A DNA stretch of 28,264 bases, taken from NCBI GenBank assembly GCA_965662175.1, contig CBFIGT010000018.1, forward strand, positions 1 through 28,264, in the 5' to 3' direction. This document shows, in pieces, positions 23,967 through 27,054 of the stretch (position 1 is the stretch's first letter; every line of letters starts with the position of its first letter). A program made the position numbers and the translations under genes. The stretch comes from Arcobacter sp. Lineage in GTDB: Bacteria; Campylobacterota; Campylobacteria; Campylobacterales; Arcobacteraceae. The notes below the pieces were generated by a model that had not been told where the DNA came from, made no database searches, and saw only the letters and a program-made list of their open reading frames with translations.

Positions 23967-24686
23967 TTGGCTTTAAAAACTATAAAATATGATAATAAAA
24001 GTTTTGATATTAGCTATGAAATAGTTAATCCCTCTTTAAAAAAAGATATTGTTATTTTACATGGTTGGGGCTCAAATAAAGATATTATGAGCTCAGTTTT
24101 TAAAAATCATTTAGAGACTTTTAGACAAATATATATTGATTTACCTGGATTTGGAAAAAGTTCAAACCCTTATATTTTAACTACAGATGATTATGTAAAT
24201 ATTACTGATAAATTTTTACAAGAGATAAATGCTTCAAAAGAGTCAATAGTTGGTCACTCATATGGTGGAAAAGTTGCTGTAAAATTAAATCCAAAAAATT
24301 TGATACTTTTAAGTAGTGCTGGAATTTTAGAAGAAAAATCTAAAAAAGTAAAAATAAAAATCAAAATAGCCAAGTTTTTTAATGCCATTGGTTTAGGTGG
24401 TCTTACAAAACTATTTAGAAGTAGTGATGTAAGTAATATGAGTCAAAATATGTATGAGACTTTTAAAAATGTAGTAAATGAAGATTTTTCAAAAGAGTTT
24501 GAAAACTACAGTGGAAAAGCTTTTATATTTTGGGGTGAAGAGGATAGTGCAACTTCTTTAGAATCAGGAATAAAAATATCAAAACTAATAAAAAATAGTG
24601 AATTTAAATCATATAAAGGAAATCACTACTTTTTTGTAGAAAATGCAAAAGATATAAGTGAAAGATTGGAAAATGGAATACTTTAA
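23967..24686 (+). CDS. Alpha/beta fold hydrolase
   Basis: LHGWG, DLPGFGKS, nucleophile motif GHSYGG and catalytic His in GNHYFF. Confidence 0.92.
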   Translation: MALKTIKYDNKSFDISYEIVNPSLKKDIVILHGWGSNKDIMSSVFKNHLETFRQIYIDLPGFGKSSNPYILTTDDYVNITDKFLQEINASKESIVGHSYGGKVAVKLNPKNLILLSSAGILEEKSKKVKIKIKIAKFFNAIGLGGLTKLFRSSDVSNMSQNMYETFKNVVNEDFSKEFENYSGKAFIFWGEEDSATSLESGIKISKLIKNSEFKSYKGNHYFFVENAKDISERLENGIL

Positions 24687-26109
24687 TATATTTACACATA
24701 TAGTTCTAGTGATGAGTTTAGGTTGGTATTTAATTACTAACTTACAGTGGTATAGTTATAAAATTGAGAGAGTTATTTTTAAACACCACAAGCTAAATTG
24801 GCATATTATATATTTTGCAAAACCTTTTGTTTTATATTATCTATTACCCTCATTATATTTTTTAATCTATTTTTATGCTTTATATTTACCTCTTTTAGTT
24901 TTATGGAATATGAAACTTGATAAGCCTTTGGTTTTAACTTCAAGAGTTCAAAGATTTTTAGCTTTACTTCTTTTTATTACATTTTGTGTAAATTTACTCT
25001 GTTTTGCAAGTGAAACCTGTAAAACTGTTGGGATTTTTATTCCTTTATTGTTGGCTTATCTTGTATCTTTTGCTTTGGAGAGAATATTCTTTATCTCTTT
25101 TAAAAGTAAAGCAAAGAAAAAACTAAAATCAATGAAAAACTTAACAATAGTTGCAATAACAGCTTCATATGGAAAAACATCAATCAAAAACTATCTTCAT
25201 CAGATTTTAAAAACAAAATATAATGCATATAAAACTCCAAGAAGTGTAAATACGCTAGCTGGTTTGGTTTTAGATGTAAATAGAGATTTGCCTGAAAATA
25301 GTGAAATATATATTGCAGAAGCTGGTGCTAGAATGCAAGGGGATATTGAAGAGATTACTATGTTTTTAGAACAACACTACTCAATTTTGGGTCAAGTTGG
25401 TGAACAGCATATTGAGTATTTTAAAACATTAGATAATATTATTCATACAAAGATGGAGATTTTAAAATCGCCAAGAATGAAAAAAGCCTTTGTCCATGAA
25501 TCTGTTCCTATGAAAAAATATGACACAATAGTTAAATTTCCAAATAATTTAAATGTAACTATGAGCAATCTTGATGGTATTTGGTTTGATTTAGAAATTG
25601 ATGGAAAACAAGAGCATTTTCATGCACCAATTTTAGGAAGTTTCAATGCTGTAAATTTAGCAGCTTGTATTCTTATGGCAAAAGAGCTTGGTATGAGTAT
25701 TGAACAAATCAAAATAGCCTTAGATAAAATAAAGCCAGTTGAACATAGACTTCAAAAAATAGAAGCAGGTGGAAAAATTATAATAGATGATAGTTTCAAT
25801 GGAAACTTTGAGGGTATGATTGAGGCTGTAAATATTTGTAGTGAGTATGAGGGAAGAAAAGTAATCATAACACCAGGACTTGTTGAATCAACTGATGAAT
25901 CAAATATTTTACTTGCAAAAGAGATTGATAAATATTTTGATGTAGTTATTTTAACAGGTTCTTTAAATACACATCTTTTTAGTGATAATATTGATAAATC
26001 AAAACAGTATATCTTAAAAGATAAATCAAAAATGGAAGAGATATTAGCTGAAAAAACAAGAGCAGGTGATTTAATTCTTTTTGCAAATGATGCACCGAAT
26101 TTTATTTAA
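24673..26109 (+). CDS. murF: Mur ligase, UDP-MurNAc-tripeptide--D-Ala-D-Ala ligase type with N-terminal TM region (start probably ATG 24673)
   Basis: ITASYGKTS, TPRSVNT, IAEAGAR, HRLQ and IIDDSFNGN. The ddl-hydrolase-murF order matches Campylobacter/Helicobacter. Confidence 0.85.
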   Translation: MEYFNIFTHIVLVMSLGWYLITNLQWYSYKIERVIFKHHKLNWHIIYFAKPFVLYYLLPSLYFLIYFYALYLPLLVLWNMKLDKPLVLTSRVQRFLALLLFITFCVNLLCFASETCKTVGIFIPLLLAYLVSFALERIFFISFKSKAKKKLKSMKNLTIVAITASYGKTSIKNYLHQILKTKYNAYKTPRSVNTLAGLVLDVNRDLPENSEIYIAEAGARMQGDIEEITMFLEQHYSILGQVGEQHIEYFKTLDNIIHTKMEILKSPRMKKAFVHESVPMKKYDTIVKFPNNLNVTMSNLDGIWFDLEIDGKQEHFHAPILGSFNAVNLAACILMAKELGMSIEQIKIALDKIKPVEHRLQKIEAGGKIIIDDSFNGNFEGMIEAVNICSEYEGRKVIITPGLVESTDESNILLAKEIDKYFDVVILTGSLNTHLFSDNIDKSKQYILKDKSKMEEILAEKTRAGDLILFANDAPNFI

Positions 26110-26132
26110 GCTTTTGGCCTAAATAAAATTCG

Positions 26133-26161
26133 AATGAAAAATGAAAAGTTAAAAATGAAAA
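26133..26161 (+). repeat. Left 7-bp tandem array (ATGAAAA x4, third unit degenerate)
   Basis: ATGAAAA ATGAAAA GTTAAAA ATGAAAA at 26134-26161. It is the inverse complement of the array after the gene. Confidence 0.85.
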
Positions 26162-26511
26162 ATATCTTGAAAGATAAATCTTATCTCTTTGCAATTAGAA
26201 TTGTAAAATTAACTAAATATTTGCAAGAAGAAAAAAAAGAGTTTATACTTTCAAATCAAGTTTTAAGAAGTGGCACTTCTATTGGTGCTTTGATAGCAGA
26301 ATCAGAATTTGCACAATCTAAAGCTGATTTTATATCAAAACTTTATATTGCATTAAAAGAAGCAAATGAAACAAAATATTGGTTAGATTTATTAAAAGAT
26401 AGTGAATATATAAATATTAATATGCATAAAAGTATTGAACCTAATATAAAAGAATTAATTAGTATACTAGTAACTAGTATAAAAACATCAAAGGAAAATA
26501 ATGCAAACTAA
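26134..26511 (+). CDS. Four helix bundle protein (23S rRNA IVP / Avd-like family); start probably ATG 26155
   Basis: KSYLFAIRIV, LSNQVLRSGTSIGALIAES, QSKADFISKLYIALKEANETKYWLDLL. Confidence 0.92.
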   Translation: MKNEKLKMKNILKDKSYLFAIRIVKLTKYLQEEKKEFILSNQVLRSGTSIGALIAESEFAQSKADFISKLYIALKEANETKYWLDLLKDSEYININMHKSIEPNIKELISILVTSIKTSKENNAN

Positions 26512-26540
26512 CTTTTCATTTTTCATTTTTCATTTTTCAT
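26509..26540 (+). repeat. Right 7-bp tandem array (TTTTCAT x4)
   Basis: TAAC followed by four perfect TTTTCAT units at 26513-26540. 26509-26527 is the exact reverse complement of 26133-26151. Confidence 0.9.
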
Positions 26541-26562
26541 TTATTTCTCAGGGAGAAATATA

Positions 26563-27054
26563 GTGGAAAGAATATATGCACCTTGGCGATTTGAGTATGT
26601 TACTGAGGATAAGATTGAGGGATGTGTATTTTGTCATATTGGAAAAAACTCTCAAGATGATGAGAAACTAGGAGTTATATTTAGAGATAAAAACTCTTAT
26701 GTTGTTATGAATAAATATCCATACTCTCCAGGTCATATTATGGTAATACCTTATTTTCATACTGATAAAATAGAAGAGCTTGATGATGAAGTTTGGATTG
26801 AGATGAGTATAAGAGTAAAACAAGCTACAAAGATGCTAAAAGAGTTACTTAATGCTGAGGGTGTGAATTTGGGTATGAACTTAAGTAAAGCTGCAGGTGC
26901 TGGTATTGCTGAACATGTACACTATCATGCAGTTCCAAGATGGCTTGGTGATACAAATTTTATTACAACTGTTGGGCATACTAGAGTTTATCCTGTAGAT
27001 TTTCATAAACTATATGAAAAATTAAAAAACAATGCTTCAAAATATTTTATTTAA
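26563..27054 (+). CDS. HIT domain protein
   Basis: IYAPWR, CVFC, MNKYPYSPGHIMVIP and AAGAGIAEHVHYHAVPRW (HxHxH). Confidence 0.94.
   Translation: MERIYAPWRFEYVTEDKIEGCVFCHIGKNSQDDEKLGVIFRDKNSYVVMNKYPYSPGHIMVIPYFHTDKIEELDDEVWIEMSIRVKQATKMLKELLNAEGVNLGMNLSKAAGAGIAEHVHYHAVPRWLGDTNFITTVGHTRVYPVDFHKLYEKLKNNASKYFI

Follow-up and report, generated by a model that had tools for sequence, protein, structure and literature searches.

A four-helix-bundle gene between inverted heptamer arrays, an exchangeable cassette resembling 23S rRNA intervening sequences in a murF–HIT operon of Arcobacter

In the 28,264-nucleotide (nt) stretch of Arcobacter sp. DNA analyzed here (the window; contig CBFIGT010000018.1 of assembly GCA_965662175.1), the short spacer between a murF-like gene and the gene of a HIT-family protein is replaced by an insert of ~453 bp (about 26110/26111 to 26563). 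The insert holds a single gene, for a four-helix-bundle protein of the family PF05635/TIGR02436, enclosed by two arrays of a 7-nt repeat in inverted orientation. Because near-identical relatives have one type of insert (A), another (B), or nothing at this site, the locus is, as judged by sequence comparison, an exchangeable cassette with three states rather than a gene passed on stably. Its design recurs widely: inverted heptamer arrays accompany most sampled homologues across many phyla. We put the probability at roughly 0.5 that the insert is a cassette of the type of the 23S rRNA intervening sequences (IVSs), exchangeable and placed in a protein-coding operon, with a stem that would be cut by RNase III. 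An original prediction, made from the letters of the window, had proposed an IVS-like cassette inside an mRNA. What it observed is confirmed and its cassette reading is supported; processing of the RNA would follow by analogy with a characterized IVS, and binding of the repeats by the encoded protein is putative.

The upstream array comprises the units ATGAAAA (26134–26140), ATGAAAA (26141–26147), GTTAAAA (26148–26154), and ATGAAAA (26155–26161), and four TTTTCAT units follow the stop codon at 26513–26540. TRF reports the upstream array (26133–26163) with period 7, 4.4 copies, and 83% matches and the downstream array (26513–26542) with period 7, 4.3 copies, and 100% matches, the latter having the top score among the 28 rows for the window. 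A repeat search recovered the perfect 19-nt inverted repeat of the original prediction (26133–26151/26509–26527), together with a 29-nt inverted repeat at 93% between both arrays and more registers offset by 7 nt. The arrays are mutually complementary in several 7-nt registers, and such pairing can cover the start codon, as had been proposed; the repeat search and the minimum-free-energy (MFE) structure agree on this point. The MFE structure of 26100–26570 joins both arrays and has an energy of −98.1 kcal/mol, compared with −71.5 ± 5.4 kcal/mol for 100 shuffles (z = −4.9), none of which was as stable. In 30 shuffles the inverted-repeat score averaged 8.5 and never exceeded 12; the locus itself scores 23.

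An outward extension of the stem by AAATAAA (26121–26127) and TTTATTT (26540–26546), also proposed, holds in part. The two do lengthen the repeat, to 34 nt at 79%, but the MFE structure puts each of them in a local hairpin, one at the murF end and one at the HIT ribosome-binding site, and TTTATTT is not conserved among the seven orthologous cassettes. The murF-end hairpin spans the murF stop codon; its 5′ arm consists of the final ~14 nt of murF, and its 3′ arm is an inverted copy of the final murF codons. The other predicted hairpin holds the HIT ribosome-binding site AGGGAG within its loop or stem, and since the right-hand end of the insert differs between the cassette types, it is not a general feature. 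HIT itself begins with 7 nt (26563–26569) that resemble a heptamer unit, GTGGAAA here and ATGGAAA in relatives, including those with an empty site. The start codon is thus GTG here versus ATG in relatives. In the MFE structure these 7 nt pair with the last TTTTCAT unit (26534–26540), which could hide the HIT start codon or be a clue to the choice of site.

The insertion into an operon that the original prediction had deduced is borne out by comparison of the murF–HIT interval. The two genes are separated by 8 nt in a genome of the same genus (G001) and by 9–13 nt in three further relatives (G009, G013, and G010). A 151-nt contig of a close relative from a public run (depth 2, a single contig) joins 26110 to 26564 via 11 other letters; we considered it as an excision product and rejected this, as the 11 other letters at the joint make it an empty-site allele. 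Cassettes occupy the same site in seven other genomes, with two types overall. Type A, with R-TGAAAA upstream and TTTTCA-Y downstream, is found in this genome (G000), G003, G005, and G016; type B, with R-TGAATA upstream and TATTCA-Y downstream, in G004, G002, G007, and G036. The two types are 76% identical. In 60-nt windows, identity across the murF and HIT flanks is 83–100%, and mostly at least 90%, among G003 (type A), G002 (type B), and G001 (empty). A tree of the cassette proteins unites type A of two genera (support 100/99), and a tree of MurF splits the genera (100/100 and 98/95).

Over its last 12 nt, murF of the occupied alleles differs synonymously from that of the empty G001 and G006 alleles, so the exchanged segment extends a few codons into murF, a pattern expected from homologous recombination through the flanks. 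No target-site duplication was found at the junctions when these were compared with empty sites. The description of the cassette as mobile therefore stands with regard to presence, absence, and type replacement at one site; no transposition mechanism was seen. Its lack of a recombinase gene of its own is confirmed, the 453 nt containing one gene only. In one genome of the same genus (G006, locus L031), the murF–HIT spacer measures 120 nt and has several small hairpins, no gene, and no heptamers; it may be the leftover of a lost insert or an unrelated insert.

We tested two helices on an alignment of eight orthologues: the hairpin at the murF end and the long stem in its 29-bp register. Pairing was found in 90.1% of the cells, versus 43–51% when the partner was slid by 1–3 columns. 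Nine pairs show changes on both sides, and the covariation score was reached by none of 500 shuffles; the 19-bp register behaved similarly. Position 6 of the unit switches between A and T in the units of both arms, giving AU in four sequences and UA in three to four at four pairs. The murF-end hairpin is kept in all eight occupied orthologues, with changes on both sides of five pairs; in G036, compensating changes affect both sides of several pairs.

To see how far the design extends beyond this site, we surveyed the flanks of homologous genes. The sample consisted of 24 homologous places from 61 relatives, 17 of these 61 genomes having a homologue, and of the best 80 of at least 595 confirmed relatives (one genome per species); three places (L046, L073, and L114) were dropped for short flanks, leaving 101 loci. 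These are the most similar loci, not a random set, and the eight orthologues are not independent; 303 positional controls were taken within the same loci. An ungapped inverted-repeat score of at least 14 was reached by 80 of the 101 loci and by 1 of the 303 controls, and the score exceeded every shuffle in 91 loci (30 shuffles each) and in 21 controls (10 shuffles each). Period 7 was the best period, at a score of at least 8, in 83 loci upstream (7 controls) and in 85 downstream (9 controls), and was found on either flank in 97 loci (16 controls). Among arrays with this score it accounts for 83 of 84 upstream and 85 of 88 downstream, and G+C-rich words occur as well, for example in L024 and L045. 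Inverted heptamer arrays are thus the rule around these genes, contrary to two outcomes that the original prediction had named as counting against it, a stable gene without repeats and homologues devoid of arrays. One cassette, L103, has an 8-nt unit (ATTGAAGA-type) in place of the heptamer.

According to the record titles, carriers include Bacteroidota, Clostridia, Acidobacteriota, Campylobacterales, cyanobacteria, Verrucomicrobia, Cloacimonadota, Peribacteria, and others. Over the best-matching segment, the best 80 of at least 595 relatives are 53–72% identical to the window protein (53–67% save one short match); these identities reach above the 56% that it shares with its paralogue in the same genome, which points to horizontal spread. 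Both neighbors have the same orientation as the gene in 71 of 97 loci and both the opposite one in 4 of 97, as judged by a crude open-reading-frame (ORF) heuristic. Inversion of the gene between its arms was considered, and only these 4 loci have both neighbors on the opposite strand. At L020, L029, L030, and L002:560–660, the downstream array lies in frame within the longest ORF of the next gene, which acquires N-terminal extensions like MNQLKTQNSKLKT...; the genes concerned, named from their translations alone, encode sugar-nucleotide enzymes. A slip by one unit in such an array would shift the frame of the next gene. At L030 (G038:C61:31310–31486) the four-helix-bundle gene is degraded (3 stops, 59 residues matched) and a clean four-unit downstream array is kept, so arrays can outlast the gene.

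What the two arms of a cassette have in common is the unit. The upstream consensus unit is the reverse complement of the downstream unit in 37 of 72 loci and agrees with it at six of seven positions in 21 more; among 2000 cross-locus control pairs, exact matches numbered 17 and six-of-seven matches 166. Each cassette has its own heptamer word, common to both arms. When 83 upstream units were rotated to a common phase, position 1 was A56/G21/T6, position 2 T71/C10/G2, position 3 G46/T35, position 4 A55/G16/C12, position 5 A64, and position 7 A74, with position 6 free. This consensus, R-T-K-A-A-N-A, carries 4.23 bits, compared with 2.69 ± 0.15 (maximum 2.98) for 100 letter-shuffles taken through the same procedure. 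The median copy number is 4.1 upstream (range 2.1–15.4) and 4.3 downstream (range 2.1–19.7). The arrays are also polar: purines make up more than 60% of the upstream arm in 68 of 91 loci and less than 40% of it in 1 of 91. Since purine-rich units mostly contain a stop codon, three or more of them close all three frames to ribosomes coming from upstream; the pyrimidine-rich exit array stays open, and this frame-closing consequence of the polarity may matter.

The protein family links these cassettes to rRNA. The encoded protein matches PF05635, "23S rRNA-intervening sequence protein" (E = 2.2e-27; 95.8 bits, cut-off 33.8; profile positions 4–104 of 106), and TIGR02436, "four helix bundle protein" (E = 9.6e-31; 106.2 bits, cut-off 24). 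ORF-bearing 23S IVSs are best characterized in Coxiella burnetii. There, according to PMC4990558, the IVS is 428 nt long with a 28-bp terminal stem; two to three GACAGAT heptamers and a degenerate one, strain-variable in copy number, lie 5′ of the start of its gene S23p, and RNase III excises the IVS, the 5′ cut falling at the first repeat. The same paper cites ORF-bearing 23S IVSs in Leptospira and others and a Xanthomonas homologue as a homopentamer, and its authors doubt that S23p is translated. By this description, the Arcobacter cassette shares with 23S IVSs the protein family (S23p being PF05635) and the placement of the gene in the loop of a long terminal stem, and with the Coxiella IVS a stem built on tandem heptamers just 5′ of the start codon, a size of ~430–450 nt, and the lack of a recombinase gene. 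The IVS-like architecture claimed by the original prediction is thus upheld by both stem and family. Unlike the 23S IVSs, the cassette lies between Mur-ligase and HIT protein genes and not in helix 25 or 45 of 23S rRNA, any cut would sever an mRNA and not an rRNA, and the cassette forms a hairpin together with the 3′ end of the gene before it and supplies a ribosome-binding site for the gene after it; RNase III cleavage is established in Coxiella and would apply here by analogy.

These similarities suggest the following course of events. In the murF-to-HIT transcript, the arrays would pair in any of several 7-nt registers to form a 19–29-bp stem. RNase III, the gene for which (rnc) is present in this genome, would cut this stem as it does in Coxiella, so that the loop with the gene would be released from the transcript. 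The cassette's hairpin with the final murF codons would protect the upstream fragment at its 3′ end, and the cassette would provide HIT with a new ribosome-binding site (AGGGAG). With these two features, the insert could be tolerated in an operon. Its spread at this site would require nothing beyond homologous recombination through the conserved flanks.

Several observations weigh against an RNase III-cut stem as the whole explanation. The covariation among the orthologues rests on two cassette types, so that few independent events are involved. Three survey results fit poorly with a simple model in which selection keeps the stem. First, arm mismatches comprise 99 of G·U type and 109 of A·C type, that is, no wobble bias on the sense strand. 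Second, the order of variant units is better mirrored between the arms in 40 of 94 loci and better collinear in 40, with 14 ties; simulated true inverted repeats (0–15% mutation) gave 57–65 mirror wins of 80–83, and unit-shuffled arrays 17–33. Third, RNase III leaves the 7-nt period, the R-T-K-A-A-N-A consensus, and the polarity unexplained. If, as the Coxiella authors think, S23p is generally not translated, the strong conservation of the protein is left unexplained as well. Public RNA data consisted of five wastewater RNA-labelled runs, all made up of contigs and covering 8–21% of the sampled words; four of the five runs were aligned to the window, and uncovered parts are uninformative. No RNA end, cut, or excised form was seen in these runs, which as contigs cannot show ends. 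One metatranscriptome contig of 329 nt spans 26124–26452 with 18 differences and shows only the gene of a relative in an RNA library. Taken together, period, consensus, polarity, unit order, and the absence of wobble bias point to a second player that reads the units, which could be the cassette protein or a process at the level of DNA that makes or homogenizes them.

The first candidate is the cassette protein itself. According to this alternative, which we regard as possible though clearly less probable than the RNase III reading, and with which it is compatible, the arrays are binding sites for a pentameric ring. Like TRAP or Hfq, the ring would read the purine-rich strand, as RNA or as single-stranded DNA, with each subunit contacting roughly one 7-nt unit, and the complementary array would compete with it. 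Binding would regulate both access to the stem and translation of the gene, which here starts within the last unit. Such binding would explain the strict 7-nt period, the fixed positions R1, T2, K3, and A7 beside a free position 6, the polarity relative to the gene, and a likeness of the arms at the level of the unit and not of the arm. The median of 4.1–4.3 copies stands beside a solved homologue deposited with five chains, and the protein is unusually conserved across phyla, as seen in the identities given above. Against this, the words vary among cassettes at positions 4–6, so that each protein lineage would need its own specificity, and a pentamer in solution is deduced for the solved homologue (PDB 2rld) from its chain count and from the Xanthomonas protein.

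A reader at the level of DNA seems somewhat less likely again. Here the arrays would be the ends of a non-autonomous mobile element, read as hairpin or cruciform by a host recombinase or one acting in trans (compare attC and IS200/IS605) or made by reiterative copying of a 7-nt template, with the RNA stem as a by-product. Presence, absence, and type replacement among near-identical hosts agree with this, as does the patchy distribution (17 of 61 genomes), and loci of other phyla come closer to the window protein (up to 67% identity) than its own paralogue does (56%). The missing wobble bias and the unit-wise, unmirrored likeness of the arms would likewise fit a making or homogenizing of units on DNA. 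On the other hand, the junctions lack a target-site duplication, and the exchanged segment includes the synonymously changed murF codons, which looks like homologous recombination and not transposition. The genome has only two copies, with different words, which speaks against a common sequence-specific recognition of the ends, and gene-less arrays are absent from it at the threshold used. A search of the genome, which is 94% complete, so that absence is unproven, found no reverse transcriptase (PF00078). Telomerase-like reiterative synthesis of both arrays would fit their unit-wise likeness, and we consider it very improbable, no candidate polymerase or reverse transcriptase having been found.

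The RNase III cut and the binding protein can also be combined into a single scheme, which we regard as unlikely, and more so than either reader on its own. In it the protein would be a ring-shaped, register-reading binder of its own array, with about one R-T-K-A-A-N-A unit per subunit on the purine-rich transcript strand; RNase III and the complementary array would be its competitors, and the cassette would amount to a self-regulating, self-excising "operon intron" for rRNA and mRNA alike. Finally, that the repeats are chance low complexity, or an ordinary terminator or attenuator of the operon, unlinked to the gene, is scarcely credible: the genome does have 27.8% G+C and the units are A/T-rich, and a 21-nt identity to the upstream array occurs in an unrelated coding region (contig C125), but the fold has a z-score of −4.9, arms are present at 80 of the 101 loci, G+C-rich words included, and at 1 of the 303 controls, so that the controls already contradict chance, only four period-7 arrays exist genome-wide, and 25800–26800 has no terminator-like site.

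The features of the locus are collected in Table 1. According to the ORF list and family profiles, the gene order, all on the + strand, is ddl-like, hydrolase, murF-like, the small cassette ORF, HIT, and RidA-like. The longest version of the cassette ORF runs from 26134 to 26511 (125 aa) and ends in TAA at 26509–26511. As the frame 5′ of the aligned ATG is interrupted by stops in six of seven orthologues, the true start is most likely ATG 26155, within the last upstream heptamer unit; the exception, G036, starts two codons earlier. The nearest solved relative by sequence match alone is PDB 2rld_A (E = 4.5e-35, residues 3–115 of 118), an "Uncharacterized protein" in an entry with five chains. 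Between 25800 and 26800, a terminator scan gave 0 sites and a promoter scan 8, compared with 7.1 ± 2.6 in shuffles; neither result points to an intrinsic terminator or to a promoter of the cassette's own. No Rfam family matched within 25900–26800 at E ≤ 1, and PADLOC matched neither paralogue. A 19-nt direct repeat (95%) connects 26009–26027, in the 3′ part of murF, with 26162–26180, in the 5′ part of the cassette gene, both coding for ...ILKDKS...; this may be convergence, the peptide being typical of both families in relatives.

Table 1. Features at the murF–HIT locus (positions in the window)
Feature	Position	Strand	Evidence
murF-like gene, left flank outside the insert	24658..26109	+	Mur_ligase_M, Mur_ligase_C; orthologous ends
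Local hairpin over the murF stop, arms 26096–26111/26117–26132 (16 nt, 94%)	26096..26132	+	Repeat search, MFE
Upstream heptamer array, purine-rich, likely start codon in last unit	26133..26163	+	Sequence reading, repeat search, TRF
Four-helix-bundle gene PF05635/TIGR02436, 118 aa from ATG 26155 (most likely start)	26155..26511	+	Profiles, PDB 2rld, orthologues
Downstream arm: TAAC (contains stop codon), then 4.3 perfect TTTTCAT units	26509..26542	+	Sequence reading, repeat search, TRF
Predicted local hairpin: last TTTTCAT + TTTATTTCTC versus GAGAAATATA + HIT start GTGGAAA	26534..26569	+	MFE
HIT-family gene, right flank	26563..27054	+	Profiles, orthologue comparison

The assembly (2.6 Mb) holds a second copy of the gene at C63:670–1023, the 56% identical paralogue, located between galE-like and galU-like genes (named from their translations alone). 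Its arrays use a different word, AATTTTN upstream and ATTCAAA/ATTAATA downstream, and the downstream array falls within the longest reading frame of the next gene. At a score of at least 14, the genome has only four period-7 arrays, two of them at the two PF05635 genes; gene-less heptamer hairpins were not found at this threshold. The third array (C1:27249–27276) consists of four GTTTTTT units at the 5′ end of a minus-strand membrane-protein ORF (...KNKKQKTKN...) unrelated to cassettes, and the fourth, on contig C7, is a weak AT-rich stretch. The 21-nt identity mentioned above lies at C125:585–605 (L007), where the letters of 26134–26154 recur on the reverse strand, in the coding region ...LMEMKNEKLKFNNK..., with no partner array; it is probably due to chance in A-rich coding sequence.

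Other known systems share parts of the design. The relationship to Avd, the accessory protein of diversity-generating retroelements (DGRs), holds at the level of the family, with a common four-helix-bundle fold family, the same Pfam family, and a small size. Unlike a DGR, the locus has no template/variable repeat pair, its neighbors being murF, HIT, and RidA-like genes, and, as noted above, no reverse transcriptase was found in the 94% complete genome. We know of no heptamer arrays around Avd genes. Cyanobacterial STRR repeats are dispersed tandem heptamers. TAACTGA repeats of Beggiatoaceae, cyanobacteria, and Bacteroidetes are direct repeats, with one inverted case among 170 sets (PMC4679880); that paper does not connect them with a four-helix-bundle gene, its text containing no occurrence of "intervening", "S23", "helix bundle", or "IVS". 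With these two repeat classes the cassettes share arrays of 2–6 heptamers, mostly intergenic and just upstream of start codons, and a patchy occurrence across phyla, and from the TAACTGA repeats they differ in having inverted array pairs around one gene family. Like integron cassettes and hairpin elements resembling miniature inverted-repeat transposable elements (MITEs), they consist of a promoter-less single gene with foldable bounds and show presence/absence polymorphism in operon-like contexts. They differ from an integron cassette in having two complementary tandem arrays in place of a single attC site, and from a transposon or MITE in the lack of a target-site duplication and of near-identical copies, there being two, 56% identical and with different arm words. 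In full-text literature outside subscription journals, we found no paper linking PF05635/S23p genes to inverted heptamer arrays outside rRNA, and heptamers tied to S23p appeared only in the Coxiella paper (PMC4990558).

The present analysis adds the finding that a single site takes three states among near-identical genomes, the murF-end hairpin, the unit consensus and the polarity, and tests by which the two arms resemble each other in their units and not as mirror images. For 30 years the 23S IVSs have been an oddity. The same design is now seen inside an ordinary operon, where it is gained, lost, and swapped between near-identical genomes, and the insert appears to carry with it the elements on which the flanking genes would depend after a cut in the operon RNA. 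Any mechanism will have to accommodate that the unit, and not the arm, is common to both sides, that the consensus of the words is loose, and that the upstream arm is the purine-rich one (68 of 91 loci). For annotation, such cassettes can extend or re-start neighboring ORFs: in the window the longest ORF wrongly begins in the array, and elsewhere the following ORF takes in a downstream array as its N-terminus. To our knowledge, PF05635/TIGR02436, a very large family, has no assigned function outside DGRs. The function of the IVS proteins can now be reduced to testable points, namely an rnc-dependent cut in the mRNA and binding of the protein to the 28-nt repeat. If the reading of the protein as a ring-shaped binder of its array is true, a very large uncharacterized family would gain one function, and the unexplained tandem heptamers of bacteria would gain a partner.

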